A DNA stretch of 64,000 nt from Candidatus Collierbacteria bacterium (GTDB lineage Bacteria > Patescibacteriota > Microgenomatia > UBA1400 > JACPES01): positions 3,862 through 67,861 of the forward strand of contig JACRNH010000002.1 in assembly GCA_016219325.1 (NCBI GenBank), read 5' to 3'. The translations under genes were made by a program, and so were the position numbers. The notes beneath the pieces are model-generated. The model worked only from the letters and a program-made list of their open reading frames with translations, was not told where the DNA came from and ran no database searches. Position 1 is the first letter of the stretch. Every line of letters begins with the position of its first letter. Shown here in pieces: positions 6,126 through 53,788 of the stretch.

Positions 6126-6228
6126 ATGTCAGATAAAAAATTCGACGTTCTTTTATTAGTGCAGATTAGTACATATTTGTATATATTTGTCATTTTAATT
6201 CCGTTATATACCAATGATAAATGACAAA

Positions 6229-9007: not shown

Positions 9008-10162
9008 TTACTTTCTCAATAATTTTCTCTTCTCAAGCAACGGTTTCAGCCGTTCGTCATGGCGGATTGTATTGATTAAATCGGCAAAGTCGCTGTCCAA
9101 CCGTGAGGCCTGTCTTGGATCATGAAGATCGATTTTTAGTTCTTCCAAAGGGTTAATTATTTGCGGGGGTTCGGAAAGAATTATATGTTTGATTTCAACG
9201 TGGTCATGCGGTTTGATCACCCTGATATCTCCGACTTTAACTTTAATACTGGTTCCTGCCGGTTTAATTTTATCAGGTAAAGCAAGTCCCATTTGAGCCA
9301 GTAAATGAAGTGAGGCCTTCATCGCAATTTGGCCAGCTTCGGTTATAGGGAAAAATTTCCGGCCGGTTTTGTAATCGGTGATTTTGACAAACCTTTCATT
9401 GTCCGGCATGTTAACTTTAACAAGATTATCAGGAGCGGCGGAAAATGAAGTCCTGTCCCGAAATAAAAGAGTATTAAGTCTCGGTTCGCTAAGACTTCCC
9501 CCGGGACCATAATCTGAAGAAACGATGGTTTGACTTTGACGTTGATCCATTAGTAGGGCTACGGCGTTAAATATCGTTTGATCCATGTTCCGTTTATCCC
9601 ATTCAAGCGCGAAATCATCGTTTTCCTCTCCAATTTCCGTTTCGGGCAAAGGTAAATTAACCGTAAATGGAGAATTTTCTCTTGCGTGATGAACAACTCT
9701 GGCGGCAATATTCATAGCAATTGATTTATGGGCCGGAGCAAAAATGTCTCTGGCGCTGTGTAAATTGGGATGGGCGAGTTGACTGTCGTCTAATAGCGCC
9801 AACGCCAATCTCACAGGTTGTTTTTTTTCAGTCGGAGCCATTCTGGCCGCGAGCTTAACCAGATTATGATGATGGAGTTGAGCAACTTCATGAGTTTGGG
9901 CCGGTTGGACGGATGAATTTATGTCAATTAACTCGACTGCCAGATGCAACAATCTTCCGGCTTCTATGGCAATTTTTCTATCTGTTGAAGGTTGAGAAAA
10001 TTGTTCTATCGGAATTTCCGGATGTTCCATAGCGTGGGTTATAATTTCCAGCCTTGAAGAAGAGAGGGGAATTAGCGGTTCGCCTGGGCGGCAGAGTTTA
10101 ATCCTGACAATGTCAGGCTGATCGGTCAGTTCTGGTAGCGTGTACTGAAACGCTTCAGGCAT
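9008..10162 (-). CDS. hypothetical protein (His-rich, possible metal-dependent hydrolase)
   Basis: 384 aa with several His clusters (HAMEH, LHHHNL, VHHARE). No firm family assignment. Confidence 0.3.
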   Translation of the reverse strand: MPEAFQYTLPELTDQPDIVRIKLCRPGEPLIPLSSSRLEIITHAMEHPEIPIEQFSQPSTDRKIAIEAGRLLHLAVELIDINSSVQPAQTHEVAQLHHHNLVKLAARMAPTEKKQPVRLALALLDDSQLAHPNLHSARDIFAPAHKSIAMNIAARVVHHARENSPFTVNLPLPETEIGEENDDFALEWDKRNMDQTIFNAVALLMDQRQSQTIVSSDYGPGGSLSEPRLNTLLFRDRTSFSAAPDNLVKVNMPDNERFVKITDYKTGRKFFPITEAGQIAMKASLHLLAQMGLALPDKIKPAGTSIKVKVGDIRVIKPHDHVEIKHIILSEPPQIINPLEELKIDLHDPRQASRLDSDFADLINTIRHDERLKPLLEKRKLLRK

Positions 10163-11185: not shown

Positions 11186-11741
11186 CGTTTTTTTGAAAAC
11201 CATTAAAGAATTCCCAAAGCCTTTTTATAAACTAGTGGATTTTGAGAAAATTTTTCATCAGAATAAAATCACGATTCAAAAGTCTATTGAGAGATTGATT
11301 AGAGTAGGAGTGGTTGATCGCTTGATAAAAGATGTTTATATTTTAACTGATAAATCAGTAGATTTAACAAGCATAGCTTCGGCTCTTTACCAGCCAAGTT
11401 ACTTAAGTTTTGAGTCGGTCCTTTTTAAGCATGGAATTATAAATCAACCGCCGTTTGGAGCTACTTTCGCTACTGCCAGAAGATCAAAAAAACTGGATTT
11501 AAGCAACGGTGAGTTTTGGTTTTCTCAAATTAAGCCGGCATTGTGGTGGGGATTCGAGTTGCAAGACGGTATATATGCGGCTGTTCCCGAAAAAGCCATA
11601 GTTGACATGTTGTACTTAAGAAGTTTAGGCCAAAGGCTATTTGATACGGATGAATGGTATTTGAAGTCTGTTGATAAAAAATTATTAAAGTCGTATTTGC
11701 AAAAAGCTAGAATTCCATGGGCCAAATTTGATTTAGTTTGA
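11175..11741 (+). CDS. AbiEi-like antitoxin-domain protein
   Basis: YILTDKS...SYLSFESVLFKHGII resembles the AbiEi_4 domain. It overlaps the AbiEii stop, though gene order is the reverse of the usual antitoxin-then-toxin arrangement. Confidence 0.4.
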   Translation: MKIDVFLKTIKEFPKPFYKLVDFEKIFHQNKITIQKSIERLIRVGVVDRLIKDVYILTDKSVDLTSIASALYQPSYLSFESVLFKHGIINQPPFGATFATARRSKKLDLSNGEFWFSQIKPALWWGFELQDGIYAAVPEKAIVDMLYLRSLGQRLFDTDEWYLKSVDKKLLKSYLQKARIPWAKFDLV

Positions 11742-20349: not shown

Positions 20350-20986
20350 TTTCCTCTAGCCTTTCTTTTTTTTCCCTATACATAATTCCATTTTGGGCCA
20401 TGGTGTGGTCGGTAAACAGGATGCCGTTGAGGTGGTCAAGTTCGTGCTGAAAGACTCGGGCGGCTAGGGCATCGAGAGTAAATACTGAATACTGAATACT
20501 GAATACTGAATTGGATGAGAGCGATTGTTCTGTCAAGATCATTGTCTTTGTTTTGATCCACGGCCAGCGGAGGACGGTTCCGTAGATTTTTGGGATTGAC
20601 AGACAACCCTCAAGAAAGGGATGAGCGTTGCCCGTTGAGCGTTGTGCGTTGCTTTCGACTAAATCTTCTCCCAGAGTCATTTCTTTTGGATGGTTGACGA
20701 TTTCAGGGTTTATATAATAAATTAACTCCGGTCCGTCCTTCTTCCCTTTTCCTTCTTCCTTCTTCCTTCCCGCCTCCAGCAACGTTGCAAACACTCTTAC
20801 TGGTCTCCCAACCTGCACCGCCGATAAGCCAATTCCCTGGGGGTTAGATTGCCTTTTCAGGGTTTTGCCTAAATCAGCCATAAATTTTACCAACTCATCA
20901 TCAATTTTGTTAATTCCTTGGCTTTTGGAGCGCAATATTTTTGTGTCGTTTGGCACTGTTAAAATTCTCATGGTAGAATTATACAT
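20339..20986 (-). CDS. def: peptide deformylase
   Basis: GIGLSAVQVG, EGCLSIP and HELDHLNG motifs. The start is probably the Met at 20971 (MRILTV). It carries an in-frame (TGAATAC)4 repeat insertion. Confidence 0.7.
   Translation of the reverse strand: MYNSTMRILTVPNDTKILRSKSQGINKIDDELVKFMADLGKTLKRQSNPQGIGLSAVQVGRPVRVFATLLEAGRKKEEGKGKKDGPELIYYINPEIVNHPKEMTLGEDLVESNAQRSTGNAHPFLEGCLSIPKIYGTVLRWPWIKTKTMILTEQSLSSNSVFSIQYSVFTLDALAARVFQHELDHLNGILFTDHTMAQNGIMYREKKERLEEISL
20479..20512. repeat. (TGAATAC)4 heptamer repeat inside def
   Basis: aatactgaatactgaatactgaatactgaatt; encodes SVFSIQYSVF on the minus strand. Confidence 0.8.
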
Positions 20987-21326: not shown

Positions 21327-23426
<2,100 letters not shown>

Positions 23427-24595: not shown

Positions 24596-25651
24596 CTATC
24601 TCAACCCCCCAACTACCTTGACGCGGTTTAAGAGTCCGGGATTTTCGAGGACGATGGCGCAGCCGCGGACCACGGTCTCTAGCGGATTCTCCGCCAACCA
24701 TACCGGCATTTTTATCTGATCTTCCACTAGTTTGGTTAAGCCTTTTAATTGCGATCCGCCTCCCGTCATAATAAGACCGTGTTTGATTAGATCACTGATT
24801 AGTTCCGGCGGAGTTTCTTCAATAGTCTCTGAAACGGCGTAAACAATTTGGTTGACAACTTGCGATAGAGCCTCACGGACTTCATTGGAGGAGAATTTGA
24901 CTGATTTTGGCAAGCCTGTTTCCTGGTCGCGGCCGCGGGCTACGAAAACCAAATTCTTGTCTTCTTTTTCTGACGGAGCCGCAGAGCCGATCTTAATTTT
25001 CATGTCTTCAGCGGTATTTTCTCCGATAATGAGGCCATATTTTGATCTGGAAAAACCGACTAAAGATTCTGTCATTTCTTCGCCGGCTATCCGTAATGAT
25101 TTATTTACTACAATCCCTCCTAAAGATATAACCGCGATTTCAGTTGTTCCGCCGCCGATATCAACAATAATATGTCCGGAAGCTTCGGTAACCGGAATTT
25201 TAGACCCTATTGCTGATGCCATAGGCTCTTCAACAAGATAAGCTTCTCTGGCCCCGGCTGATAACGCGGCCTGTTGAACGGCCCGCCGTTCAACTTCGGT
25301 TACTCCTGAAGGAATTCCGACCGCGACTCTGGGGCGGGGGATTTTAGGAAACCACGAAGATCCTGTATGGATGACTTTAATCCAATGTTTTAACATGGCG
25401 GCGGTGGCGTCAAAGTCGGCGATAACTCCACCCCGTAAAGGTTTTATGGCTTCAATAGTTGAAGGGGTTTTGCCGAGCATTTTTCTGGCTTCCTCTCCAA
25501 CTGCCAATATGGCTTTACCTTTTTTAGCCCGGGCAACGACAGATGGTTGGCGGATAACGATACCTTTTCCACGGACATGGATTAAAGTATTGGCAGTGCC
25601 AAGATCAATACCGACATCGTGAGTAATAAAACTTAAGAAACGATTAAACAT
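24596..25651 (-). CDS. mreB: rod shape-determining protein MreB
   Basis: GIDLGTANTLIHVRGKGIVIRQPSVVA and the actin-like ATPase motifs throughout. Confidence 0.85.
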   Translation of the reverse strand: MFNRFLSFITHDVGIDLGTANTLIHVRGKGIVIRQPSVVARAKKGKAILAVGEEARKMLGKTPSTIEAIKPLRGGVIADFDATAAMLKHWIKVIHTGSSWFPKIPRPRVAVGIPSGVTEVERRAVQQAALSAGAREAYLVEEPMASAIGSKIPVTEASGHIIVDIGGGTTEIAVISLGGIVVNKSLRIAGEEMTESLVGFSRSKYGLIIGENTAEDMKIKIGSAAPSEKEDKNLVFVARGRDQETGLPKSVKFSSNEVREALSQVVNQIVYAVSETIEETPPELISDLIKHGLIMTGGGSQLKGLTKLVEDQIKMPVWLAENPLETVVRGCAIVLENPGLLNRVKVVGGLR

Positions 25652-25654
25652 AAC

Positions 25655-25810
25655 CTGTTATCCGATTTCTGTTTTCAGTTATCGGATTCAGGTTTATCGG
25701 TTTTCAGTCTGTCGGTCTCGAAACCGGAAAACCGAAAACTGGCAAACTTGCAACCGAAAACCGATAACCGAGAACTGATAACTAATTCTATCAGTTTATC
25801 GCTAATCTGC
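25655..25810. repeat. about 130-bp TTATCGGTTTTCGG palindromic element, intergenic copy
   Basis: cagttatcggattcaggtttatcggttttcag ... aaccgaaaaccgataaccgagaactgataact; sits between divergent mreB and the mreCD-mrdA side. Confidence 0.8.
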
Positions 25811-25860
25811 CACTGGCAATTTTGTTCTAGTTATGTAATATTGTGAGGGGGTAGAAAACA

Positions 25861-26502
25861 ATGAGCAGAAAACAGAAAACAATGCTTGCAGTATTCATTT
25901 CCCGCCTTTTTGATCCGGCCTGGATGATTCCCGGGATGTTGGCGGCGGCTGCCGGGTGGAGCTTGCTTAACGGTTTGAGATGGCGTTTTATAGTCATATT
26001 GCTTTTGATTGATGGATTAATTCCTTTCCTGTATTTTGTTCATCTTTTATCTACTAAAGAGATATCCGATTGGGATACCACTAAACGCGAACAAAGAATA
26101 AAGCTCTACGCATTTACTTTGGTATGTCATTCAACAGGAGTGATTATGGCTTGGTTGTTGGGGAAAATAATGCTGGCAAAAATTCTTCTTATATTTCTAG
26201 TGTTGGCTGCGGTTTTTACTCTGATAACTTTAATCTGGAAAATATCAATTCATACAGGGGTAGTATCGGCTGCAGTGATTTTCTTAAGTTTTTTGTTTGG
26301 ACGGAATTGGCTGTGGTTATTTTTAATAGTAGCGTTGGTAGCTTGGGCCAGAATAACCATGAAAAAACATACTTTATTACAAGCAGTAGCCGGCGCCGCG
26401 GTGGGAGCCGGAATAATTTTCATAGGATTTCGTCTGTTAGGGATTAATTCTGAAGCAGCTATTTATTCCAGCCGGATTTGCACATTGGGAAAATGGTGCT
26501 GA
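25861..26502 (+). CDS. polytopic membrane protein (weak PAP2-like resemblance)
   Basis: 213 aa, about 6 TM helices; KISIHTG and ARITMKKH loosely resemble PAP2 motifs. Its 5' end is built from an AACAATGAGCAGAAAACAGAAAACAATG repeat. Confidence 0.3.
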   Translation: MSRKQKTMLAVFISRLFDPAWMIPGMLAAAAGWSLLNGLRWRFIVILLLIDGLIPFLYFVHLLSTKEISDWDTTKREQRIKLYAFTLVCHSTGVIMAWLLGKIMLAKILLIFLVLAAVFTLITLIWKISIHTGVVSAAVIFLSFLFGRNWLWLFLIVALVAWARITMKKHTLLQAVAGAAVGAGIIFIGFRLLGINSEAAIYSSRICTLGKWC

Positions 26503-27719: not shown

Positions 27720-29452
27720 AATTCGGGCCATTAGGATCGTCAACTAATATTCAGAAGCATAATTTTTTACCATTGGGAATAATAGTAATAATTATGATGT
27801 CTGTATTGGGGATAATTTTAGCCAGGTTGACGACTCTGACTGTTTTTCGCGGTCAAGAATTGAGGCGCAGGGCAGATGAAAATAGAATTCTGATTAGGAA
27901 AATTCCCGCTCCGCGAAGAATTATTTTTGACCGTAACGGCAAGGCTTTAACCAGGAATGCTCCTGAAGGAAGGATATATCCATTTGAAAAAAATTTTACT
28001 CATGTGATTGGTTATGTAGGTGAAGTTTCAGAAGATGAAATGCAAAACGATTCATCTTTAAATATCGGAGATGCCATTGGCAAATCAGGCTTGGAAAAAC
28101 AATATGATAGAACATTGAGGGGGGTAGACGGGGCAGAATTGATCGAGGTGGACGCTATGGGGAATTTGCTTGGCGTTTTAGAAGATTTGCCGCCTCAATC
28201 AGGCAAAGATCTACACACAAATTTAGATGCTAATTTGCAAATTGCGATGACAGAGAGTTTAGGAGATAGAAAAGGAGCGGCTGTGGCAATTGATCCGGTT
28301 GACGGAACCGTATTGGGATTGGCGTCAAGTCCGGCGTATGATCCGAATGTGTTTGGGAAAATAATGAGCAATGAGCAGAAAATAGAAAGTAATGAAAAAG
28401 AAATTCAAAACTTGCTAACAGATACGATAAATCTTCCTTTGTTCAATCGCGCCATTTCAGGAGAATATCCGCCGGGATCAATTTTTAAGTTGGTAACTGC
28501 AGCTGCGGGATTGGCGGAAAATAAAATTAACAGCCGGACTTTGATTATGGATACAGGGGAAATTAAAATCGGGGCATTCCGGTTCGGGAATTGGTATTTT
28601 GATCAGTATGGAAAAACAGAAGGTGAAATCGGAATCATCCGAGCCCTGGCCAGAAGCAATGATATTTTTTTCTATAAGGTCGGGGAATTGCTTGGTCCGG
28701 ATTTACTATCCGGTTGGGCTAGGAAATTTGGCTTGGGGGAAAAAACAGAAATTGATCTTATCGGTGAAGTTGACGGATTGGTCCCGGATTCTAAATGGAA
28801 AGAAAAAACAACAGGCGAAAGATGGTTTTTAGGAAATACTTATCATATGGCTATTGGTCAGGGGGACGTTCAGTTAACCCCTTTGCAGGCGGCAATGATG
28901 GCGGGGGCGGTGGCGACGGGGAAAAAATGTCAGCCGCGCATTGCCAATTCAGTATTCAGAATTCAGAATTCAGAATTAAATTGTCAGGATATTGGGATAT
29001 CTGACCAAGACCGAAATTTAATTTTAGAAGGTATGGTTGGAGCTTGTTCAACCGGCGGTACCGCCTTTCCATTTTTCCCCTGGAATCAATCAATTGAAGG
29101 TCTAACCTTCAATAAAGCCATACATCAATCAAATGGTATAAGCAATTATCCGGCTGTGGCCTGTAAAACCGGAACTTCCCAGCATGGTGGAAAACAAATC
29201 AAACCGCACGCCTGGATAGTAGTGGTAGGCCCGATAGCGCAGCGGAATTCAGAATTCAGAATTCCCTGCCCGCCATCGGCTATCGCCGAAGGCGATTGCA
29301 GGCGGGAGAATTCAGAATTATATAAGTTGGATTTGGAATCAAAAAAACGAATTGTTTTGGTGGTGATGTTGGAGGATGCAGGAGAGGGCTCTTACGAAGC
29401 CGGTCCGGTTGCCAAAAAGATTTTGGAAAAGTGGTTTAAAAATGACGATTGA
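27716..29452 (+). CDS. mrdA: penicillin-binding protein 2 (transpeptidase)
   Basis: N-terminal TM; SIFK (SxxK) and KTGT motifs. Start at the ATG overlapping the mreD stop (the tracked ORF begins at 27617). Three in-frame repeat insertions. Confidence 0.75.
   Translation: MKFGPLGSSTNIQKHNFLPLGIIVIIMMSVLGIILARLTTLTVFRGQELRRRADENRILIRKIPAPRRIIFDRNGKALTRNAPEGRIYPFEKNFTHVIGYVGEVSEDEMQNDSSLNIGDAIGKSGLEKQYDRTLRGVDGAELIEVDAMGNLLGVLEDLPPQSGKDLHTNLDANLQIAMTESLGDRKGAAVAIDPVDGTVLGLASSPAYDPNVFGKIMSNEQKIESNEKEIQNLLTDTINLPLFNRAISGEYPPGSIFKLVTAAAGLAENKINSRTLIMDTGEIKIGAFRFGNWYFDQYGKTEGEIGIIRALARSNDIFFYKVGELLGPDLLSGWARKFGLGEKTEIDLIGEVDGLVPDSKWKEKTTGERWFLGNTYHMAIGQGDVQLTPLQAAMMAGAVATGKKCQPRIANSVFRIQNSELNCQDIGISDQDRNLILEGMVGACSTGGTAFPFFPWNQSIEGLTFNKAIHQSNGISNYPAVACKTGTSQHGGKQIKPHAWIVVVGPIAQRNSEFRIPCPPSAIAEGDCRRENSELYKLDLESKKRIVLVVMLEDAGEGSYEAGPVAKKILEKWFKNDD
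28358..28397. repeat. AATGAGCAATGAGCAGAAAATAGAAAGTAATG element inside mrdA
   Basis: Encodes IMSNEQKIESNEK. Confidence 0.75.
28947..28978. repeat. (TTCAGAA)n heptamer repeat inside mrdA
   Basis: attcagtattcagaattcagaattcagaatt; further copies at 29246-29266 and 29310-29325. Confidence 0.8.
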
Positions 29453-30641
29453 GGATTTAAAGAAAAAAATCAAGAAGTTGGGGCTGACAATTGACGGCGA
29501 AAACGGCCGGGTGCTGGTGGAGTGGAAGAAGGTCCCGTTTGCCGAAACCGATAGGCCATATTGGGCTGGTTTGTCTTCAATAGACGGAGTCGGTCCGAAT
29601 GCTTTACCGCTTTTGGTATCGTGTTTTGGGTCAGCCAAAAACGTTCTGTTTGCGGATAAAGAATTGTTAACGCAAGCGGGAATACCGGTAAATGTGGCAG
29701 CGAGGATTATTGGATTTTCCGGTAAAAATGATATTAACAAATGGTTTGATAAGGCTCTTAATCCTGAGCCTAATATTAATTTATCTTTCCTGACTCCAAA
29801 AGATAAAGATTTTCCGGAGAGATTATTGAGCATGTCAGGAGCTCCAAGCCACTTGTGGGTTTGGGGGGATAAGACAATATTGAACCAAAAACGAATTGTA
29901 GCAATAGTCGGAACCAGAAAAATTACCCCTTACGGCCGGTCTGTAACAGAAATTCTAGCTGAAGGCTTGGCAATCAGAGGACTGATCGTCATTTCAGGAT
30001 TGATGTATGGTGTTGACGAGGTCGCGCAAAGAGCGGCATTGAAAAACAAAGGGATAGTCATAGGGGTTTGGGCCGGAGGGATAACCCGGAAATCTTTTGG
30101 CAGCCGAGCCCGGTTAGCCTACGAAATAGTTTCAAATAATGGGGCAGTTGTTTCGGAATTCTCATTTGAGAAATTTCCTTTTAAAGGCACATTTCCGGCC
30201 CGCAATCGAATCGTTTCCGGATTATCTGCCGGAGTAGTAATTACTGAAGCGGCGGCAAAGTCCGGCAGTCTTATCACCGCGGATTGCGCTCTTGATCAGG
30301 GTAAGCCGGTAGGCGCCGTCCCTGGTCCGATAACCAGTCCGTTGTCTGAAGGCCCTAATGAGTTATTAAAAAATGGAGCCACTCCAACTACCAATGTTAT
30401 GGATATCTTGAATATGTGCGGATTAACCGGAAAGAATCTTGATAAAACTTTTCAATATATTCCTAAAAATGATAACGAAAAATTAATTCTTAAGCTTTTG
30501 GCAGATCAAAATTTGACGGTTGACGATTTAGTCAGGGTGTCATCTTTTCCCATATCTGAAATTTCGGAAACTTTAACATCTTTGGAATTATCAGGAGTAG
30601 TCGAACAAGTGGGGGAAGAGTGGAGGAAGCTAGCAAATTAA
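29442..30641 (+). CDS. dprA: DNA processing protein DprA (Smf)
   Basis: IVGTRKITPYGRSVTEILAEGLAIRGLIVISGLMYGVDEVAQRAAL is the Rossmann-like DprA core. The start overlaps the mrdA stop. Confidence 0.7.
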   Translation: MTIEDLKKKIKKLGLTIDGENGRVLVEWKKVPFAETDRPYWAGLSSIDGVGPNALPLLVSCFGSAKNVLFADKELLTQAGIPVNVAARIIGFSGKNDINKWFDKALNPEPNINLSFLTPKDKDFPERLLSMSGAPSHLWVWGDKTILNQKRIVAIVGTRKITPYGRSVTEILAEGLAIRGLIVISGLMYGVDEVAQRAALKNKGIVIGVWAGGITRKSFGSRARLAYEIVSNNGAVVSEFSFEKFPFKGTFPARNRIVSGLSAGVVITEAAAKSGSLITADCALDQGKPVGAVPGPITSPLSEGPNELLKNGATPTTNVMDILNMCGLTGKNLDKTFQYIPKNDNEKLILKLLADQNLTVDDLVRVSSFPISEISETLTSLELSGVVEQVGEEWRKLAN

Positions 30642-30652
30642 ATAATAAAAAA

Positions 30653-30786
30653 ACCGTTATCAGTTTTCGGTTATCAGTTATCAGTTTCAGGTTGGTCGGT
30701 TTTCGGTTAATCAGTTTCCGAAACCGGCAAACCGAAGACCGATGGACTATAAACCGAAAACAGAAAACTGAGAACTGATAACCGGC
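30653..30786. repeat. about 130-bp TTATCGGTTTTCGG palindromic element, intergenic dprA-topA
   Basis: ccgttatcagttttcggttatcagttatcag ... aaccgaaaacagaaaactgagaactgataaccgg. Confidence 0.8.
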
Positions 30787-30806
30787 ACTATGATATTCTT
30801 CACATT

Positions 30807-32948
30807 ATGAAACTTGTTCTTGTTGAGTCTCCGACCAAAGCCCGGACACTGACAAAATTTTTGGGCGGGGATTACAGAGTTGAAGCCACGATGGGGCATT
30901 TGCGGGATCTGCCCAAGAACAGGATGGGATTTTCGGTTAAGTCGGAAAACGGTAAAACTAAATTTTTGCCGGACTACGAAGTGGCGGCGGAAAAAAAATC
31001 CAAAGTTGCCGATTTGGTGGCGGCATCCCGCGGAATGGATAGAATTATTCTGGCGACAGATCCTGATCGGGAAGGAGAGGCGATTGCCTGGCATGTAGCC
31101 GCGCTTTTGCGCGGAACTCAAAATTCAAAATTCAAAATTCAAAATTTTCAAAGGGTTGTTTTTCATCAAATCACCAAAGACGCGATTCTAGACGCGATGA
31201 AGCATCCGCGGGAATTGGATATGAATTTGGTTGACGCTCAACAGGCCAGAAGGATTTTGGACAGGATGGTTGGATATCAGCTATCGCCGTTATTGTGGAG
31301 AAAAATCCGCCGCGGATTATCGGCCGGCCGTGTCCAAAGCGTTGCCGTCAGGATGATTGTTGAACGGGAGCGGGAAATTGAATCTTTTATGCCGGTTGAG
31401 TATTGGGAGGTATTCGTAAAAGTACAAGAAAGTACAAAAATGTACAAAAATGTACAAGAAGGTGAATTTGATGTCAAGCTGATTGAAATTGATGGGAATA
31501 AAGCTGATTTATCGAAGAAAAATCAGGTAGATCCGGTCGTTGAGGATTTGAAAAAAGCGCGATATTCAGTTGAGAAAGTTGATAGAACAGAAGTCAGGAA
31601 GCGGCCATTCCCGCCGTTTACTACCAGTACTTTGCAGCAGGCGGCATCCAGAACTTTCCGCTGGAGCGGTAAAAAAACTATGAATATCGCCCAAAGGTTA
31701 TATGAACATGGTTTTATTACTTATCACCGAACCGATTCAACTAATTTAGCCAAAGAAGCGGTGGAAAATGTCCGCCAATTAATTTTATCTAAATATGGGA
31801 AGGATTATTTGCCGTCTGAAGCAAGATTTTTTAAAACCAAAAACGCGCTGGCGCAGGAGGCTCATGAAGCAATTAGGCCAACCAATCCTATAGATTTTTA
31901 TAATCCGGGAAAACTGGAACAGGAAGTCGGATTAATCGCCAAAGACGCTTTCCGGCTTTATCAATTAATTTGGAAAAAATTTGTCTCCTGTCAGATGGCA
32001 GACCAGATTTATGACCAAACTACGATTAAGGTTTTGGCTCAGGGTATTAAAAAATACGGATTAAAAGTTGTCGGGATGGTGGAAAAGTTTGAGGGATGGA
32101 AAATACTTTATCAGTCGTCAGTTCTCGGTTCTCGGTTGTCAGATAAAAGTCAATCAGTTATCGGTTTATCAGTTTCAGGAGTCGAAAAACTGAAAACCGG
32201 TAAACCAGAAACTGAAAACGGAGAACAGAAAACTGATCAACCGTTACCCGAAGTTCAAGTTGGCGATCAGCTTCAATGCATCAAAGTGGATCCTCAGCAG
32301 AATTTTACCCAACCCCCCGGAAGATTCACTGAGGCGATGTTGATTAAGTTGTTGGAGGAAAAGGGGATTGGCCGGCCGTCAACTTACGCTCCGATTGTAA
32401 GTACGATCCAGGATAGGGGATACGTGGAAAAAATGGAAGGCAGATTTCATCCAATGCCGGTGGGGATAGTGGTAAATGATTTTTTGGTGGAATATTTTTC
32501 TTCAATTGTGGATTATGATTTTACTAAGAATTTGGAAGAGGATTTTGACAAAATAGCGGAAAATAAAAAAGGCTGGAATGATGTGTTAGGGGAATTTTAT
32601 TCTCCGTTTGTTGAAAGGCTGAAGAAAGTTGAAATTGGGGCGGAGAGGAAAAGAATTCCGGCTGAAGAAACAGGGGAAAGCTGTCCCAAATGCGGGGAAG
32701 GCCGGCAAGTTATTCGATCGGGGAAATTCGGTAAATTCCTATCCTGTTCGCTGTTTCCTAAATGCGATTGGAAAAATAAATATGTGGAAAAATCAGGCGT
32801 TAAATGCCCGTTATGCCGTGACGGCGACGTGGTAGTTAAGAAAACAAAAAAGGGTCGTCACTTTTTCGGTTGTTCAAATTATCCGAATTGTAAATTCGCC
32901 AGCTGGAGAAAGCCGGGGGGGGAACTAGCAAAAAAACAGGAAATATGA
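30807..32948 (+). CDS. topA: DNA topoisomerase I
   Basis: MKLVLVESPTKARTL, a TOPRIM domain, the catalytic region, and C-terminal Cys4 zinc ribbons (CPKCGEG, CPLCRDG). Two in-frame repeat insertions. Confidence 0.85.
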   Translation: MKLVLVESPTKARTLTKFLGGDYRVEATMGHLRDLPKNRMGFSVKSENGKTKFLPDYEVAAEKKSKVADLVAASRGMDRIILATDPDREGEAIAWHVAALLRGTQNSKFKIQNFQRVVFHQITKDAILDAMKHPRELDMNLVDAQQARRILDRMVGYQLSPLLWRKIRRGLSAGRVQSVAVRMIVEREREIESFMPVEYWEVFVKVQESTKMYKNVQEGEFDVKLIEIDGNKADLSKKNQVDPVVEDLKKARYSVEKVDRTEVRKRPFPPFTTSTLQQAASRTFRWSGKKTMNIAQRLYEHGFITYHRTDSTNLAKEAVENVRQLILSKYGKDYLPSEARFFKTKNALAQEAHEAIRPTNPIDFYNPGKLEQEVGLIAKDAFRLYQLIWKKFVSCQMADQIYDQTTIKVLAQGIKKYGLKVVGMVEKFEGWKILYQSSVLGSRLSDKSQSVIGLSVSGVEKLKTGKPETENGEQKTDQPLPEVQVGDQLQCIKVDPQQNFTQPPGRFTEAMLIKLLEEKGIGRPSTYAPIVSTIQDRGYVEKMEGRFHPMPVGIVVNDFLVEYFSSIVDYDFTKNLEEDFDKIAENKKGWNDVLGEFYSPFVERLKKVEIGAERKRIPAEETGESCPKCGEGRQVIRSGKFGKFLSCSLFPKCDWKNKYVEKSGVKCPLCRDGDVVVKKTKKGRHFFGCSNYPNCKFASWRKPGGELAKKQEI
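31128..31150. repeat. (AAATTCA)n heptamer repeat inside topA
   Basis: aaaattcaaaattcaaaattcaaaatt, encoding NSKFKIQNF; preceded by the hairpin ccgcgcttttgcgcgg. Confidence 0.8.
32110..32243. repeat. about 130-bp TTATCGGTTTTCGG palindromic element inserted in frame in topA
   Basis: Encodes SSVLGSRLSDKSQSVIGLSVSGVEKLKTGKPETENGEQKTDQ without interrupting the ORF. Confidence 0.8.
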
Positions 32949-34259: not shown

Positions 34260-34825
34260 TGCCCCAGCAGTACGCTCGCCACTCCCGTGGCCTACGTCCA
34301 CGCGTCGTGGTGTCGCGACTGCGGGGTTCGGGCGTGCCAGCTGATTTTTCTGACGAAAAATCAGGGCCCGTCCGAAAAAGGCATGACCCCCGTACCGCCA
34401 GAACTTCCGCCGATTACTGGTATGATGAAGCATGGAAAAATGCCGGTAAGTGCGTCTTTTGTGACTTGCGGAAAAAATATATTATCGCCGAAAAAGACAA
34501 CGTGGTTTTAACCGTAAATCTTTATCAATATATTGACGGGCATCTGATGGTGATTCCCCGCCGTCACTTTGAGAGCTTGGACGAGACCAATCCAGCGGAA
34601 TGGAAAGCGATATTTTATTTGCTTAATCTTGGGGTAAAAAAACTTCAGGATAAATTAAAGATTAATGATATTTACATTTTAGACAGGCCATTGTCAGGGT
34701 TTAAAACCGGTAAGACTGTAGCCCATAGCCATTTCCATATCATTCCCTACAAACAGGAACTGGTTAGTTGGCATTATCAAGAGGTGTCTATTCATCCTGA
34801 GGATTTGGCGAAGAAACTTAGATAG
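34256..34825 (+). CDS. HIT-family hydrolase/transferase
   Basis: HSHFHIIP histidine triad plus CVFCDL. The N-terminal 60 aa is encoded by an unusually GC-rich segment. Confidence 0.5.
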   Translation: MMPQQYARHSRGLRPRVVVSRLRGSGVPADFSDEKSGPVRKRHDPRTARTSADYWYDEAWKNAGKCVFCDLRKKYIIAEKDNVVLTVNLYQYIDGHLMVIPRRHFESLDETNPAEWKAIFYLLNLGVKKLQDKLKINDIYILDRPLSGFKTGKTVAHSHFHIIPYKQELVSWHYQEVSIHPEDLAKKLR

Positions 34826-34905
34826 AAAATAATGAGCAGAAAATAATGAGTAATGTTATTTGATTTGATTCATTACTCTTTACTTCTTACTCATTACTCA
34901 TTATG
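34826..34905. repeat. AATGAGCAGAAAATAATGAGTAATG inverted-repeat element; its 3' arm supplies the dCMP deaminase start
   Basis: aaaataatgagcagaaaataatgagtaatg ... cattactctttacttcttactcattactcattATG. Confidence 0.75.
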
Positions 34906-35418: not shown

Positions 35419-35497
35419 ATTTTGTTATCTTGTTATCTTGTTATCTTGTTACTAATCAAGATAACAATCTAGCAAGATAGCAAGCTAGCAATTATTC
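35419..35497. repeat. (TTGTTATC)3 tandem plus inverted partner (AAGATAACAA / AAGATAGCAAG)
   Basis: ttgttatcttgttatcttgttatcttgttactaatcaagataacaatctagcaagatagcaagctagcaa. Confidence 0.7.
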
Positions 35498-41619: not shown

Positions 41620-42483
41620 ATGTTTATTATCGATGGTAAAAAATTAGCAGCGGAAAGAGAACAGCTTCTAAAAATTGAAGTCCAAAAATTAACCAAAAAG
41701 ATTGGCAGAAGACCAAGATTAGTGGCAGTCGAATTGTCCGATGACGAGGGAGGTAGGTTATATTTGAAATTAAAAAAGGCGGCAGCGGAGAGGGTGGGGA
41801 TAGAATTTGATGTTGTAAAAAGGCCTGGCCTTGCATGGCAAGGCCAGGCCTTATCAGACACTGACGGTATCTTCATTCAGCATCCTCGGGGTTACAATAA
41901 GCAAAAATGGCAGGAGCTGGTTGATCAAATTCCACCGGAAAAAGATGTTGATTGTTTGACCAGTGAAAATCTCCGATTGATAAAAGAAGGAAATCCAAGG
42001 TTTTTGCCGGCGACAGTGAAAGCCGTTTTATATTCTCTGGAACACGTTTTTCGTCTGGAAAGGCCTGGCCTTGCTTGGCAAGGCCAGGCCTTATCTGATG
42101 CTCTACGCGGGAAGAAAATCGTTATTCTGGGGCGAAGCCCCATTCTTGGATTACCGCTATTTTGGTGGTTGAAAAGCCTTGGCGTTAATGTGACGCTCTT
42201 TCATTCTCAATCGACGATTAGCGATTTACGATTAGCGGTTAGCGAGGCTGATATTTTAATTTCTTCCGTCGGTAAGCCCGGATTAGTCACCGGCAATATG
42301 GTTAAGAAAGGGGCAATTGTAATTGATTGCGGTTCGCCTTTGGGAGACGTAGTTTTCAGTGAAGTAGCTCCCAAAACCTCAGCTATAACCCCTGTTCCCG
42401 GCGGCGTTGGGCCGCTGACAGTGGTCAGTCTAATGGAAAATGTGGTACAATCCATAAATAACGCAGGCCGGGAAAGCTCCTGA
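41620..42483 (+). CDS. folD: bifunctional methylene-THF dehydrogenase/cyclohydrolase
   Basis: FolD layout with a GxGxxVG-like Rossmann motif. Two identical in-frame GGCC palindrome insertions (PGLAWQGQALSD, twice). Confidence 0.8.
   Translation: MFIIDGKKLAAEREQLLKIEVQKLTKKIGRRPRLVAVELSDDEGGRLYLKLKKAAAERVGIEFDVVKRPGLAWQGQALSDTDGIFIQHPRGYNKQKWQELVDQIPPEKDVDCLTSENLRLIKEGNPRFLPATVKAVLYSLEHVFRLERPGLAWQGQALSDALRGKKIVILGRSPILGLPLFWWLKSLGVNVTLFHSQSTISDLRLAVSEADILISSVGKPGLVTGNMVKKGAIVIDCGSPLGDVVFSEVAPKTSAITPVPGGVGPLTVVSLMENVVQSINNAGRESS
41821..41853. repeat. GGCC palindrome AGGCCTGGCCTTGCATGGCAAGGCCAGGCCTTA (copy 1 in folD)
   Basis: Perfect hairpin-forming sequence inside the coding frame. Confidence 0.85.
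42061..42093. repeat. GGCC palindrome (copy 2 in folD)
   Basis: aggcctggccttgcttggcaaggccaggcctta. Confidence 0.85.
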
Positions 42484-42524: not shown

Positions 42525-43301
42525 TTGCAGGAAGGATTAAGGAGCTATATGCCAAAAAAAGACGATAAGATTTCGATTGATGTTTCTTTGGAAGAATTAA
42601 TGGAGGCAGGGTGTCATTTTGGGCATCAGGCCCGCCGTTGGCATCCAAAAATGGCTCCATATATCTGGGGTCAAAAGGATGGCGTTCACATTTTTGATTT
42701 GGATAAAACCCGCCAGGCTATTTTAGAAGCCGTAGAGATGGTCAGGAAGCTTGCGTCGGAGGGAAAATCAATTATTTTCGTCGGGACCAAGAAACAGGCT
42801 TATCAGATTATTACTGAAGAAGCGGTTAGAGCCGGAATGCCGTTTGTGGCCAAACGCTGGTTGGGGGGAACTTTAACTAATTGGAAACAATTGAAATTAA
42901 GCATCAATAAATTGATTGATCTGAAGATGAAACGTGATGCTAAAGAGTTGGATAAATATACTAAGAAAGAAAGAATTTTAATTGATAAAGAAATTGATAA
43001 ATTGGAGAAATTTGTCGGCGGGCTGCAAAAATTAACAGGTTTGCCGGATGCCATTTTCGTTGTTGACATAAAAAGGGAAGAGTCGGCCGTCAGGGAAGCT
43101 TTCATATTAAATATTCCGGTGATTGCCATAGTCGATTCCAATTGCAATCCGGAAAAAATAACTAAAATAATTCCGGGTAATGACGATGCCATCAGAACTA
43201 TCAGATTAATTACTTCTAAAATTGCCGATGCAGTGCTGGAGGGAAAAATAAAAAACAATGAACAGAAAGCAAAGAGCAATGAAACAAAACTACAGTCATA
43301 A
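42525..43301 (+). CDS. rpsB: 30S ribosomal protein S2
   Basis: GCHFGHQARRWHPKMAPYIWG is the S2 signature. The C-terminal tail NNEQKAKSNETKLQS is encoded by a repeat. Confidence 0.85.
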   Translation: MQEGLRSYMPKKDDKISIDVSLEELMEAGCHFGHQARRWHPKMAPYIWGQKDGVHIFDLDKTRQAILEAVEMVRKLASEGKSIIFVGTKKQAYQIITEEAVRAGMPFVAKRWLGGTLTNWKQLKLSINKLIDLKMKRDAKELDKYTKKERILIDKEIDKLEKFVGGLQKLTGLPDAIFVVDIKREESAVREAFILNIPVIAIVDSNCNPEKITKIIPGNDDAIRTIRLITSKIADAVLEGKIKNNEQKAKSNETKLQS

Positions 43302-43335
43302 CATTGTTTTCTGTTTTCTGCTCATTGTTAATTAA
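43250..43335. repeat. AACAATGAACAGAAAGCAAAGAGCAATG inverted-repeat element spanning the rpsB stop
   Basis: The 5' arm is in frame at the rpsB 3' end; the 3' arm cattgttttctgttttctgctcattgtt lies downstream. Confidence 0.75.
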
Positions 43336-43344
43336 TTTAATTAT

Positions 43345-43794: not shown

Positions 43795-43837
43795 CAAGCT
43801 CAAATCGCAAATCTCAAAGTGCAAAATCAAGCTAAAA

Positions 43838-43885
43838 GTTAAAAACTTTGAATTTTGAACTTGGAGTTGATATTTGAGTTTTGAG
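43838..43885. repeat. (TTTTGAA)n-type repeat, intergenic tsf-frr
   Basis: aaactttgaattttgaacttggagttgatatttgagttttgag; related to 8144-8176. Confidence 0.7.
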
Positions 43886-47667: not shown

Positions 47668-49025
47668 TAAATAAATGGTTTTCGTTTTTTATCCCAGAAT
47701 TTTCCGCGGCGGCAAAGATTTTCAACATCAGATTTGTTTTTCAATAGAGCTTCAACCATAATTTCTAGAAAGATAGTATTTTGCGAACCCTTAACTAAAA
47801 TGATTTCATTCCCTGAAAGATTTTTTGTTAAATAATTTGCCGCCTCTCCGGCGGCAGAAAACCATTCGACCGGCAGTTTTGATTGTTGAATTGCCGGCAG
47901 AAAGTATTGTTTCATCAATGGACCGACAAGGATAATTTTGTCAGCTGATTTTATCGCAGTTTCCGCCACTTTTTTATGTTCGATTTCAGCCTGTGATCCG
48001 AGCTCTCTCATGTCCCCTAAAACAGCAATTTTAATTTTGCCCCCCCCAATATTTTTTAGCATCTCAAGACTTCCATTCATAGTTTTTCCCGAGGCGTTAT
48101 ATGAAGAATCAATAATTGTGGTGTTTTTAATTCCTTGAAAAATCCGGCCTCGGCCGGGGGGAAGATTAAAATTAGCGGTTAAAGCCTCTGAAATTTTTTT
48201 GACCGGCAAATCTAAAATCATTCCGACTGTTGCTGCCACTGCCATGGTTTCACTGTAATAATTGGGAAGAGCAAGATTTAGCAGATTTATGAAGTATGAT
48301 TTATGATTTATGAATAAAGAAATAGATGTTCCATCTAGGCTTGGAAGTATAGATTTAATAACAACGTCAGCGTTCTTCTTTCTTCCGAATGTCACAATGC
48401 GGGCTTCATCTACCGGTTTTAATGAAATAATTTCCGGTTGATCGGCATTCAAAATGGCGTATTGAAGATCCGGGTTTTGTGTCACCAGTTTTCCTTTCTC
48501 TTTGGCTATCGTTGCAACAGAGCCAAATTGTTGCGTATGAACAGGTAGGGCATTTAGAATTACCCCGATATCCGGATGTAGAATTGTCAATAAGTATTCC
48601 ATATTTTTTGGCAGGGTCGGTTCATCGATTCCCATTTCAACCAGATAGCAGTCAAATGCTGAATGCTGAATACTGAATACTGAATGCAATGCTTTAAGCG
48701 GAGCCAGAAGACAAATTTTTAGCCAGTCAAAAAATGAATAGTCGATAAAGTGCAAGCCGAGAATATCAGCCGGAATTCCGGATTCGGAATTGGCCTTTTC
48801 GGCGACTTTAAGATTTTTGAATTTTAGTCTTAACACCGGAGCGATAGCGTCTACGGCACTGGACTTTCCGGCAGAGCCGGTGACTCCGACTATGAATGGG
48901 CGGTTAATTTTTAATACTTGCCGCGCCCAAAACCTTAACCACCATAAAACCGGCCAGCGGAGAATGTTTTTCATCGAATTTATTATAGCTTGTTTAAAGG
49001 CTTGGTTTGGCGTAACCACTTCCAA
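47667..49025 (-). CDS. murF: Mur ligase (MurF-like UDP-MurNAc-pentapeptide synthetase)
   Basis: GVTGSAGKSS P-loop and NSESGIPADILGL. Heptamer repeat insertion LKALHSVFSIQHSAFD. Confidence 0.55.
   Translation of the reverse strand: MEVVTPNQAFKQAIINSMKNILRWPVLWWLRFWARQVLKINRPFIVGVTGSAGKSSAVDAIAPVLRLKFKNLKVAEKANSESGIPADILGLHFIDYSFFDWLKICLLAPLKALHSVFSIQHSAFDCYLVEMGIDEPTLPKNMEYLLTILHPDIGVILNALPVHTQQFGSVATIAKEKGKLVTQNPDLQYAILNADQPEIISLKPVDEARIVTFGRKKNADVVIKSILPSLDGTSISLFINHKSYFINLLNLALPNYYSETMAVAATVGMILDLPVKKISEALTANFNLPPGRGRIFQGIKNTTIIDSSYNASGKTMNGSLEMLKNIGGGKIKIAVLGDMRELGSQAEIEHKKVAETAIKSADKIILVGPLMKQYFLPAIQQSKLPVEWFSAAGEAANYLTKNLSGNEIILVKGSQNTIFLEIMVEALLKNKSDVENLCRRGKFWDKKRKPFI
48655..48688. 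repeat. (TGAATRC)n heptamer repeat inside murF
   Basis: aaatgctgaatgctgaatactgaatactgaatgc. Confidence 0.8.
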
Positions 49026-49746: not shown

Positions 49747-50856
49747 ATGCTAACTGTTTTGATATTTTTTATTCTCCTCTCGGTTCTGGTTCTGGTTCAT
49801 GAACTAGGGCATTTTATCGCAGCCAAAAAATTGGGTGTGGTGGCGGAAGAGTTCGGATTGGGATTACCGCCGAAAATAAGGAGGTTATTTACCTGGCAGG
49901 GGACTGAATTTACTCTTAATTGGTTGCCGTTGGGAGGGTTTGTGAAGATGAGGGGGGAGAATCGCGAAACAGAAAACAATGAGCAAAAAACAATGAGCAA
50001 TGAGGGTGACGGTTACTTTTATGCGCAGAAGCCGTGGAAGCGGGCGGTGATTTTGGTGGCCGGAGTGTTTATGAATTTGGTTTTGGGAGTGGCTGCATTT
50101 ACCGTGGTTTATACGGTTATGGGAATTCCGGAAGAAAGAGATGTAGTAGTAATTGACGGTGTGGCGCCGGGAAGTCCGGCGGAACGAGCACGATTAGAGC
50201 CGAATGATATCGTGCTCGAACTCAAATCTCAAAACTCAAATCTCAAAACTATTAAGACAGAACAATTTATTGAGTTGATCAATCAGAATAGGGGAGAAGA
50301 AGTTAAACTCGTTGTCAAGCGCGGAAGCGAGGATAAGGAGATTTCTATAACTCCCAGGGTTGAGTCAGAGACTCCGGCAGGGGAAGGGGCTTTGGGGGTG
50401 GCAATATCCAATATTCAGTTTATTCATTATCCTTGGTGGCAGATGCCGTTCCGGGCGTCCGTAACCGGGTTTAAGGAAGCTTTGGCGTGGGGAGGAAACA
50501 TCGTCGGAGGATTGGGGAAAATGCTGGTTGATTTAATAGCTCACGGCAAAGTCCCAAATGACGTTGCCGGTCCAGTTGGAATTGCTAGAATTACCGGAGA
50601 AGTTGCCAAAAGAGGCTGGATTCCGTTATTCCAGCTAGCCGGAATTTTATCAATCAATTTGGCGGTGGTGAATATTCTGCCGATTCCGGCTTTAGACGGC
50701 GGCCGGCTGTTATTTTTAGGCATAGAAAAACTGCGGGGCAAGCCGATGGATCCCAAAAAAGAGCGCTTAATCCACTTAGCCGGTTACGCGGTGCTGCTGG
50801 GCTTGATTGTGTTGATAACTTTTCGCGATATATCAATGGCGGTCTCCGGGAAATAA
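49747..50856 (+). CDS. rseP: RseP-like site-2 protease (M50 with PDZ)
   Basis: HELGHFIAAKKLGV (HExxH), a PDZ-like middle domain, and C-terminal ALDGGRLLF. Two in-frame repeat insertions. Confidence 0.75.
   Translation: MLTVLIFFILLSVLVLVHELGHFIAAKKLGVVAEEFGLGLPPKIRRLFTWQGTEFTLNWLPLGGFVKMRGENRETENNEQKTMSNEGDGYFYAQKPWKRAVILVAGVFMNLVLGVAAFTVVYTVMGIPEERDVVVIDGVAPGSPAERARLEPNDIVLELKSQNSNLKTIKTEQFIELINQNRGEEVKLVVKRGSEDKEISITPRVESETPAGEGALGVAISNIQFIHYPWWQMPFRASVTGFKEALAWGGNIVGGLGKMLVDLIAHGKVPNDVAGPVGIARITGEVAKRGWIPLFQLAGILSINLAVVNILPIPALDGGRLLFLGIEKLRGKPMDPKKERLIHLAGYAVLLGLIVLITFRDISMAVSGK
49966..50003. repeat. AACAATGAGCAAAAAACAATGAGCAATGAG element inside rseP
   Basis: Encodes ENNEQKTMSNEG. Confidence 0.75.
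50221..50250. repeat. (CTCAAAW)n heptamer repeat inside rseP
   Basis: ctcaaatctcaaaactcaaatctcaaaact. Confidence 0.8.
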
Positions 50857-53641: not shown

Positions 53642-53642
53642 T

Positions 53643-53788
53643 TTAAGTCGGAATATTCTTTGTGGCGGCCAATCTTTCGGATAAATCTTTTGGGACAGGC
53701 AAACGGTCGCTATCTTTAAGTCGGAATATTCTTTGTGGCGGCCAATCTTTCGGATAAATCTTTTGGGACAGGCAAACGGTCGCTATCG
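53643..53788. repeat. perfect 73-bp tandem duplication
   Basis: ttaagtcggaatattctttgtggcggccaatctttcggataaatcttttgggacaggcaaacggtcgctatc occurs twice, back to back. Confidence 0.9.

Follow-up and report, generated by a model that had tools for sequence, protein, structure and literature searches.

A 64,000-nt stretch of DNA from Candidatus Collierbacteria (candidate phyla radiation, CPR; Microgenomates) contains four copies of an imperfect palindrome, two of them between genes (upstream of mreB, and between dprA and topA) and two in frame inside protein genes (topA and a gene for a Wzy-like membrane protein). This stretch, at its full length, is called the window below. The copies belong to a family of palindromes, typically of ~125–131 bp, which occurs in Microgenomates. 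We consider it likely that this family is the form without an open reading frame (ORF), similar to a miniature inverted-repeat transposable element (MITE), of a hairpin element of ~500 bp that carries a PF05635 gene, and that it persists where it is tolerated.

The ORF-bearing form was found by means of the arms of the palindrome. At seven metagenome loci, among the matches listed, the left and right arms were ~380 nt apart, and the interval encoded a conserved protein of 124 amino acids. This protein lies above the curated cut-offs of PF05635 ("23S rRNA-intervening sequence protein") and TIGR02436 ("four helix bundle protein"), and the PF05635 scores were 50–68 bits against a cut-off of 33.8. 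At three further loci, which lay at contig ends, the gene was accompanied by one arm. Because these 7 + 3 loci were all found via the arms, a reciprocal test was run from the side of the protein. The 124-aa protein had 522 homologues at E ≤ 1e-10, and all of the named ones were from Microgenomates or Patescibacteria. At each of the five loci picked by the protein alone (5/5), the left arm was located directly upstream and the right arm directly downstream of the gene. The same arms thus enclose a PF05635 gene, and therefore the short palindromes are regarded as ORF-less derivatives of an element of the intervening sequence (IVS) type. We infer that the long form gave rise to the short one, and not that the gene entered a pre-existing palindrome.

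The long element also occurs in a 23S rRNA gene. In the locus L168, it is located inside the 23S rRNA gene, as an 830-nt insertion at position ~2436 of the large-subunit rRNA model, and it is therefore an IVS by definition. The same 23S gene has a second IVS, in which another PF05635 paralog lies between inverted GATAGAA-type heptamers. The long copy L246 is probably also in an rRNA gene, adjoining LAGLIDADG ORFs, and that of L205 is located 350 nt after the end of the 16S gene. Outside rRNA are the copies of L132, L160, L181, L187, L243, L245 and L247, the last being a long copy between ychF and rpsF, as well as all four copies of the window. PF05635 ORFs are known from IVSs in both Leptospira and Coxiella, and in Coxiella GACAGAT heptamers adjoin the S23p ORF (PMC4990558), and they are carried by rRNA insertions of CPR bacteria (PMC11270868). 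PF05635 genes are also wedged into cas operons (PMC3936711), and the family is homologous to Avd, a protein of diversity-generating retroelements (DGRs) (PMC10053308). In the searchable literature, heptamer-built arms, ORF-less derivatives and insertion into protein genes are not described for PF05635 elements. Nor did we find there a description of this palindrome family for CPR genomes, in agreement with the preliminary description, which was aware of none.

A classical MITE, derived from an insertion sequence (IS) of the DDE or HUH type and mobilised in trans by its transposase, would also produce copies that are short, numerous, palindromic and polymorphic between genomes. However, the coding form with these arms encoded PF05635, and not a transposase, in 15/15 cases. 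No transposase was seen beside the copies (this applies to the copy surroundings; whole genomes were not surveyed), and there was no GTAG/CGTC tag. Target-site duplication (TSD) was not detected: among the matches listed, 52 of 85 copies had no abutting direct repeat, 26 had one of 1 nt and seven had one of 2 nt. The absence of TSD would fit the single-strand mechanism of IS200/IS605 or of the transposases (RAYT) associated with repetitive extragenic palindromes (REPs). Taken together, we regard a DDE or HUH parent as very unlikely, and the PF05635 element as the better candidate for the parent.

The coordinates of the four copies were obtained with an nhmmer profile and a palindrome scan. Copy 1 (22924–23048, or 22919–23053 in the palindrome scan; 113 bits by the profile) is located in frame inside an O-antigen-ligase-like ORF for a Wzy_C and TPR membrane protein (21327–23426, − strand), and is read on the − strand as ...LSVIGFLFSVFSFKSIGRQSTGSKPMDRKPINHEPITDNREL... 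Copy 2 (25657–25782; 110 bits) is located in the intergenic region between the divergent mreB and PAP2-like genes and begins 5 nt upstream of the codon that starts mreB (24596–25651, − strand; Pfam MreB_Mbl, 420 bits). If mreB is transcribed from further upstream, its 5′ leader would consist of copy 2. Copy 3 (30656–30782; 109 bits) lies between the stop codon of dprA at 30641 (29376–30641, + strand; Pfam DNA_processg_A) and the start codon of topA at 30807, and copy 4 (32114–32240; 98 bits) is in frame in topA (type IA topoisomerase; 30807–32948, + strand; Pfam Toprim, Topoisom_bac and Zn_ribbon_Top1), where it encodes SSVLGSRLSDKSQSVIGLSVSGVEKLKTGKPETENGEQKTDQ, residues 437–478 of TopA. These copies were the four strongest long palindromes of the window (scores 21–30), and three shuffles of the whole window gave none at the threshold used. 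The family-specific pattern of one arm had seven matches in the window and none in 100 dinucleotide shuffles. Whichever strand is folded, each copy gives a long, imperfectly paired hairpin (−42 to −62 kcal/mol, z = −5.3 to −9.1). The preliminary description had placed four imperfect palindromes at these sites, and its positions were right except for the end of copy 2, which at 25810 was ~25 nt too far. Pfam agrees with its assignment of the neighbouring genes, and the reading of the topA and Wzy-like copies in frame, including the exact TopA peptide, was reproduced. The family relationship it proposed is borne out by the gapless alignment given below and by the folding of every copy.

The arms of the palindrome have a fixed architecture. 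The left arm consists, in order, of four GTTNTCR heptamers, an 8-nt variable unit, units of 8, 7 and 8 nt, and GTTT, and the right arm mirrors it with YGANAAC units. An extra half unit on each side leads to the ends YCN-GTTATC...GATAAC-NGR. Within the units, the columns G1, T2, T3, T5 and C6 are invariant, and positions 4 and 7 are free. The family is about 115–135 nt long (85 copies overall, among the matches listed), and both this length and the 7/8-nt phase shifts are constant across the 85 copies, which come from many genomes and unrelated genes. No conserved target motif was found; the apparent flanking YCN/NGR is the further half unit of the palindrome itself. When the four window copies were aligned without gaps, their identity was 65–81% in register and 48–61% when shifted by ±7 nt. 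This higher identity in register indicates that the copies are homologous, with a shared ancestry beyond the common 7-nt period. These data bear on the alternative that each palindrome originated at its own site, with polymerase slippage expanding heptamers and an inverted duplication following, in the absence of any copy-and-paste. Such local events would suit a window full of period-7 tandem repeats, the array of (AAGGGAC)x5 at the TopA site of the relative L004, and the finding that, among the long simple repeats of prokaryotes, heptamers are the most frequent (reviewed in PMC4679880). The common architecture already contradicts it, however, as the identical phase shifts and length, the in-register identity and the bimodal profile scores described next all stand against independent origins. 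We give this alternative almost no credence, and a dispersed family with one ancestor is assumed below.

The distribution of the family was surveyed with a symmetric pattern in one genome per species, and the matches were scored with the family profile. The pattern matched in many phyla, and most of the matches outside CPR were inverted GTTATCN arrays around unrelated cores. The profile scores were bimodal, with 86–113 bits for loci of Gottesman-, Davies-, Levy- and Woesebacteria and of "Patescibacteria", and 56 bits or less for all others. The full architecture is thus confined to loci of the Patescibacteria/Microgenomates type, Collierbacteria included. Full-architecture copies, with scores in the upper range, were also present in five metagenome-assembled genomes labelled "uncultured Gammaproteobacteria (TPA_asm)" (L016, L038, L044, L076 and L112), which have 39–46% GC and CPR-like gene contexts; this label is probably wrong. 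In Saprospiraceae (L019, L035, L060, L061, L074, L107 and L122) and Nostocales (L020, L033, L048, L070, L081 and L118), longer hairpins are built on a base of inverted GTTATCN arrays and have family-specific cores (GGGGTGGTAAGGAGACCAT..; CGGTTTCAGTCGGGGATTTAACCCC..GGGGGACTCTGA); they look like distinct repeat families with these heptamer ends in common. A metagenome scan with the arm pattern gave at least 120 loci, with at least 65 full and at least 52 partial copies. A single contig of 724 kb, Ga0209515_10000002, had at least four strict matches. A scan of viral contigs with the arm-specific pattern gave no match, and a phage origin was rejected on this result.

Orthologous copies are strongly conserved in sequence. 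Copy 2 and its L004 orthologue are 96.8% identical, as compared with 56% for the third codon positions of mreB and 87% for the adjacent spacer. The PBP2 copy is 92% identical between L004 and L005 and the gene 79%, and copy 3 is 93.7% identical to its orthologue in the metagenome contig L169, with flanks at 78–82%. In the other orthologous pairs, the identity was 85–97% for the element and 72–88% for the flanks. Of the substitutions between orthologous copies, 11 fell on columns that vary in the family and two on columns conserved in it (Fisher p = 0.002). Since a constraint with a 7-nt period cannot be derived from codons, each unit is presumably recognised by something.

Base pairing was analysed on an alignment of 20 copies. 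In this alignment, 75.0% of the cells pair, as compared with 77.7 ± 0.6% when the partners were shuffled, and all of the covariation measures fell below those of the shuffles. The free unit positions 4 and 7 were mismatched more often than by chance. A strand-specific RNA signature was not detected, as G:U and A:C mismatches were balanced in every copy and neither strand had an excess of G:U. The idea of a structure conserved by compensatory change was dropped, base-pair covariation being absent. The mirror columns 26 and 108 never pair in the 20 copies (R or C versus A in 17, and T versus C in three). An intrinsic polarity of the palindrome, at which these columns hinted, found no support in an expectation-maximisation test of orientation, which gave no significant result and varied with its starting point. 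DGR-like adenine mutagenesis was also rejected as the source of the variable positions, as it fits the G/T-rich arm and not the A/C-rich arm.

The occupancy of the sites was compared with three syntenic Collierbacteria loci (L001, L004 and L005), which were obtained through TopA homologues. The dprA-topA spacer, with copy 3 in the window, has a different palindrome of ~125 nt in L001 and is an empty spacer of 13 nt in L004 and L005. The TopA loop, with copy 4 in the window, has a truncated copy of the same element in L001, the direct heptamer array (AAGGGAC)x5 in L004 (at about 11310–11350), and 12 ordinary residues in L005. Upstream of mreB, where the window has copy 2, yet another family is present in L001 and the same element in L004, and the site is empty in L005. 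The PBP2 gene contains other repeats in the window and in L001, and an in-frame copy in both L004 and L005. The rpsB-tsf spacer has a different palindrome in the window and a copy (L004c) in L004, and no copy was detected there in L005. At the site of copy 1 in the Wzy-like gene, the more distant ortholog L102 has a gap and L001 has a different palindrome. The metagenome contig L169 has orthologous copies both at dprA-topA and in PBP2. The presence of empty, filled and truncated sites means that the occupancy is polymorphic among genomes with genes about 75–85% identical. In L001, the palindromes at the sites of the GTTATC family are located at 9853–9985, 3415–3540, 6269–6387 and 464–554. A TCTTGAAGATGG.. 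family occupies the dprA-topA site and the site upstream of mreB, and PBP2 and the Wzy loop contain a TCAGAAAA/TCGGAGA family of 8-mers in which the A-rich arm precedes the other.

The conservation and the occupancy together bear on the possibility that the copies are cis-acting hairpins of the host (mRNA stabilisers, RNase III sites, attenuators or protein-binding sites), which are selected at gene boundaries, and that the in-frame copies are accidents. A host function would agree with an element identity exceeding the flank identity in every closely related orthologous pair, with conserved positions recurring every 7 nt, and with the locations of copy 2 abutting the mreB start codon, copy 3 in the dprA-topA spacer and L004c at rpsB-tsf. 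It would not lead us to expect that close relatives lack the copies, or have others in their place, at the same sites, that about 31% of the copies are inside ORFs of unrelated genes, or that these arms also surround a PF05635 gene and are found in rRNA, and covariation is lacking. We therefore consider host cis-acting hairpins as a general explanation rather unlikely. It is quite possible that individual copies were exapted, and this is compatible with an origin from the PF05635 element. The preliminary description had suggested that the copies at dprA-topA and mreB could also be regulatory hairpins, and such a role would agree with how unusually well the copies are conserved.

Copies inside protein genes were counted among the full metagenomic copies with adequate flanks (n = 58, among the matches listed). 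Eighteen of them (~31%) were in frame inside long ORFs, and in the genome loci 8 of 21 copies were so located. The host genes include those for Rho, ribosomal protein L1, PRPP synthetase (two), PBP2, a P-type ATPase, 5′-3′ exonuclease, CCA/poly(A) polymerase, RluA, ComEC, Wzy, XerC-like recombinases, an FMN dehydrogenase, a group-1 glycosyltransferase (GT1) and an ATP-grasp enzyme. One frame was used by 13 of the 18 in-frame copies, with the common peptide [RQ]LSVLGSRLSDKGQSV.GQSV..TDKPKTGKPETENRKLKTDNR, the TopA insert included. The peptide of this favoured frame has ~42 residues and is hydrophilic and putatively disordered, and those of the other two frames are hydrophobic or aromatic; the membrane protein Wzy uses a hydrophobic one. 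Non-genic copies were stop-free in a given frame in only 10–13%, alike in all three frames, and open frames pre-adapted in the family consensus were rejected on this result. As the intragenic frame is always open and one frame is preferred, both the open frame and the choice of frame look selected.

The intragenic copies could instead be removed after transcription, by RNA excision and ligation or by intein-like splicing, so that the host proteins are free of the insert. RNase III is known to excise IVS stems in rRNA (PMC4990558), and the hairpin potential of the intragenic copies equals that of the others: weaker hairpins in coding copies were looked for and rejected, with medians of −37 and −36 kcal/mol per 100 nt (p = 0.59). 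Removal would nevertheless leave the host frame without a reason to be always open, as against 10–13% for the non-genic copies, or to be the hydrophilic one in 13/18, and the two features point to selection on a translated product. Furthermore, excision by RNase III leaves unligated fragments, and no intron or other RNA family was matched: Rfam searches (gathering thresholds for the whole window, and E-value mode for 22.8–32.4 kb) gave only tRNA and chance similarity to miRNA-precursor hairpins. Removal is thus extremely unlikely in our view, and the copies would be retained in the host proteins as translated inserts.

The insert in TopA was examined by comparison with other TopA sequences and by structure prediction. 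It was absent from 20 of 21 other TopA sequences, and a truncated version was present in the closest relative, P0003, only. The similarity of TopA to E. coli topoisomerase I ends at residue 432 and restarts at 476, and the counterpart of this stretch in the E. coli enzyme is a 10-residue loop (residues 437–448). In an AlphaFold2 model of TopA with a mean predicted local distance difference test (pLDDT) score of 79, residues 438–476 had pLDDT < 50 and no secondary structure. The insert is accordingly lineage-specific and maps to a loop, as the preliminary description had anticipated, and in the model it would occupy a variable loop that is predicted to be disordered. Two further variable sites of topA consist of tandem repeats, (TCAAAAT)x4 at 31118–31146 and (AAAAGTACAA)x4 at 31418–31457, and at the second of these P0005, P0006 and P0013 have the unrelated insert SLRGDPI.SGRRGNPGEIATL..ARND. 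In the Wzy-like ORF, copy 1 is read through in frame as residues ~126–167. The same ORF contains three in-frame palindromes of an AATGAGY/AGAAAAT heptamer family (21871–21991, 22060–22152 and 22676–22759), and related repeats are located at 25853–25884, 28358–28394, 34824–34903, 43245–43338 and 49971–50004.

From these results, we propose the following scheme. An element of ~500 bp, the two arms of which enclose the gene for the 124-aa PF05635 four-helix-bundle protein, would insert in 23S rRNA genes and between ordinary genes. The family would have been inserted at many sites, and the survivors would be those in the tiny intergenic gaps of compact genomes. Inside genes, survival would be possible only for copies that keep the frame open and lie in a permissive surface loop, and such copies would be translated, mostly in the frame giving the hydrophilic disordered peptide of ~42 residues. 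In the most speculative steps, the PF05635 pentamer would be a nucleic-acid-binding protein that recognises its own heptamer units, and this protein recognition, not base pairing, might keep the units conserved and drive the spread or maintenance of the family.

Several observations weigh against this scheme, or against parts of it. No transposase, TSD or donor-recipient pair was found, and movement is therefore deduced from the distribution. The window copies are only 65–81% alike, which gives no sign of recent transposition in this genome. The only PF05635 gene of the window belongs to another repeat family, and a gene matching that of the 124-aa protein was not found in the 64 kb. The relative L001 (GCA_016183365.1) has different palindrome families at exactly the same four sites, which could mean hot spots, saturation of permissive sites, replacement or turnover in situ, and not simple insertion. 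The copies are more conserved than their flanks, unlike junk DNA. Without covariation, and with pairing slightly below chance at the variable positions, selection for the hairpin is unsupported.

The association of PF05635 genes with inverted repeats is not confined to this family. All of the 14 other PF05635 paralogs (14/14), from CPR, Bacteroidota, Verrucomicrobiota and Chthoniobacterales, were bordered by inverted arrays of short units, mostly of 7 nt, and the unit differed from paralog to paralog. Over the CPR-rich loci, inverted short-period arrays enclosed 19 of 19 PF05635 genes. As an unbiased check, ten PF05635 genes on finished plasmids of cultured cyanobacteria and Azospirillum were analysed. 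Seven of the ten had flanking inverted arrays, with scores of 16–27 versus a maximum of 12 in 200 random controls, and an eighth had heptamer arrays of different units on its two sides. In three of the cyanobacterial plasmids (L248, L250 and L251), the PF05635 genes are located in short cas6-cas4 or cmr2-cmr3 gaps, which looks like insertion into operon spacers and matches a published observation (PMC3936711). A wider proposal is that PF05635/Avd-like genes define a widespread class of hairpin elements, with stems of paralog-specific heptamers recognised by the pentamer and rRNA IVSs as the best-known landing sites. Its ORF-less derivatives would be much of the short tandemly repeated repetitive (STRR) sequences, TAACTGA repeats and long simple repeats, and would remodel essential CPR proteins in frame. 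We put this proposal forward tentatively and doubt it slightly more than we believe it.

The PF05635 gene of the window is located at 6229–6633 on the − strand (39.0 bits by Pfam, against the cut-off of 33.8) and has the short inverted repeats ACCAATGATAAATGACAAA / TTTGTCATTTGTGCAGATTGGT. It is adjoined by an ORF-less palindrome (6091–6187) of the same family of ~10-nt units, and the two make up a second family of IVS-type elements in the window, which is not located in an rRNA gene. When the other palindromes of the window were compared with the arms of the PF05635 paralogs from the loci studied, there was no match. The folD-like ORF (41620–42483) has two in-frame GC-rich palindromes of ~40 nt, at 41819–41858 and 42059–42098 (AAAGGCCTGGCCTTGC..GCAAGGCCAGGCCTT), each of which is read as (K/E)RPGLAWQGQALSD; in its L005 ortholog, the first site is taken by another palindrome and the second has no palindrome. 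Elsewhere in the window (23697, 35077, 44802, 45504 and 47642), a GC-rich palindrome of this type looks like a terminator. The window is unusually dense in tandem repeats of period 7, and some of period 8, with many different units (for example 8075–8174, 20481–20511, 28946–28977, 35422–35491, 43808–43883, 48655–48687 and 50219–50250), and several of these are arranged as palindromes at gene junctions. A perfect tandem duplication of 73 nt, with two copies 100% identical, is located at 53642–53787 and could be a recent duplication or an assembly artefact.

These results indicate that palindromes of the kind known as Rickettsia palindromic elements (RPEs) are, in essential proteins, not an oddity of Rickettsia. 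They occur in a class-level group of CPR, in TopA, Rho, L1, PRPP synthetase and PBP2, and part of the "unusual insertions" in CPR proteins may originate from them. To our knowledge, RPEs have never had a parent element, and we know of no function having been assigned in 30 years to the PF05635-type protein family outside DGRs. A candidate parent is now at hand, in which the same arms carry a four-helix-bundle gene of the rRNA-IVS and DGR family. The combination of PF05635 with paralog-specific inverted heptamers suggests one explanation for the role of the IVS ORF, the abundance of heptanucleotides in some phyla and the spread of the repeats. In practice, such repeats break assemblies, inflate the apparent divergence of proteins and can be mistaken for other repeat loci.

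Among known systems, the STRR and TAACTGA repeats of Beggiatoaceae, cyanobacteria and Bacteroidota (MacGregor 2015, PMC4679880) resemble the family in their unit, as rotating TAACTGA gives TGATAAC, which is complementary to GTTATCA. They are also located mostly at gene boundaries and occasionally in ORFs, with an LSVISYQ-like translation, and have an unexplained phylogenetic spread. They are, however, mostly direct and exact arrays of variable length, whereas the arrays described here are inverted, degenerate and of fixed length, with internal landmarks and 8-nt phase shifts. REPs and bacterial interspersed mosaic elements (BIMEs) with RAYT, and the MITEs Correia, ERIC, BOX and RUP, are likewise small dispersed hairpins at gene boundaries, some of them intragenic (ERIC and BOX) and some exapted for RNA stability or termination. 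REP/BIME sequences have 20–40 bp, a GTAG/CGTC tag and a Y1 RAYT gene, in contrast to ~125 nt, ends of YCN-GTTATC...GATAAC-NGR and many intragenic copies in this family. No tag, TSD, RAYT or IS parent was present around the copies examined (RAYT genes were not searched genome-wide). PARCELs share with the family a coding sequence with dyad symmetry, which has apparently spread between and within genomes. They consist of 25-residue domains arranged in tandem in surface or membrane proteins without known function, have neither heptamer arms nor a PF05635 link, and are not single insertions in housekeeping enzymes, unlike the copies here. Regarding DGRs, no reverse transcriptase or pair of template and variable repeats adjoined the PF05635 genes examined (whole genomes were not surveyed), and the variable positions of the A/C-rich arm are not adenines.

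The closest likenesses are to the 23S rRNA IVSs and the RPEs. With the IVSs of Leptospira, Coxiella and Brucella (PMC4990558, PMC11270868), the long form shares an inverted-repeat stem and a four-helix-bundle ORF in the loop. The window copies differ from them in having no ORF and in lying outside rRNA, in mRNA leaders and spacers or in protein genes, and rRNA is not the site of most long forms recovered here either. In the 23S rRNA IVS the stem is near-perfect and 28 bp long, whereas the stems here measure ~60 bp and have one mismatch per 3–4 bp. RPEs are presented, in the part of PMC10969869 that summarises Ogata et al. 2000, as ~100–150-bp palindromes of a reduced genome, located between genes and in frame. 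The present family is likened to them by behaviour, not by sequence, since both are hairpin palindromes of ~100–150 bp that are often in frame in unrelated genes, with a conserved peptide in a preferred frame, tolerance in surface regions and no associated transposase. This likeness had been suggested in the preliminary description, and it is strengthened by the empty sites in relatives and the in-frame copies in many unrelated housekeeping genes across Microgenomates. Unlike RPEs, the family has CPR hosts instead of Rickettsiales, fixed arms of 7-nt units, an ORF-bearing form with PF05635 and a class-level spread. We would thus describe it as apparently analogous to RPEs and as a putative derivative of PF05635-type IVS elements, rather than as a member of the RPEs, MITEs or REPs.

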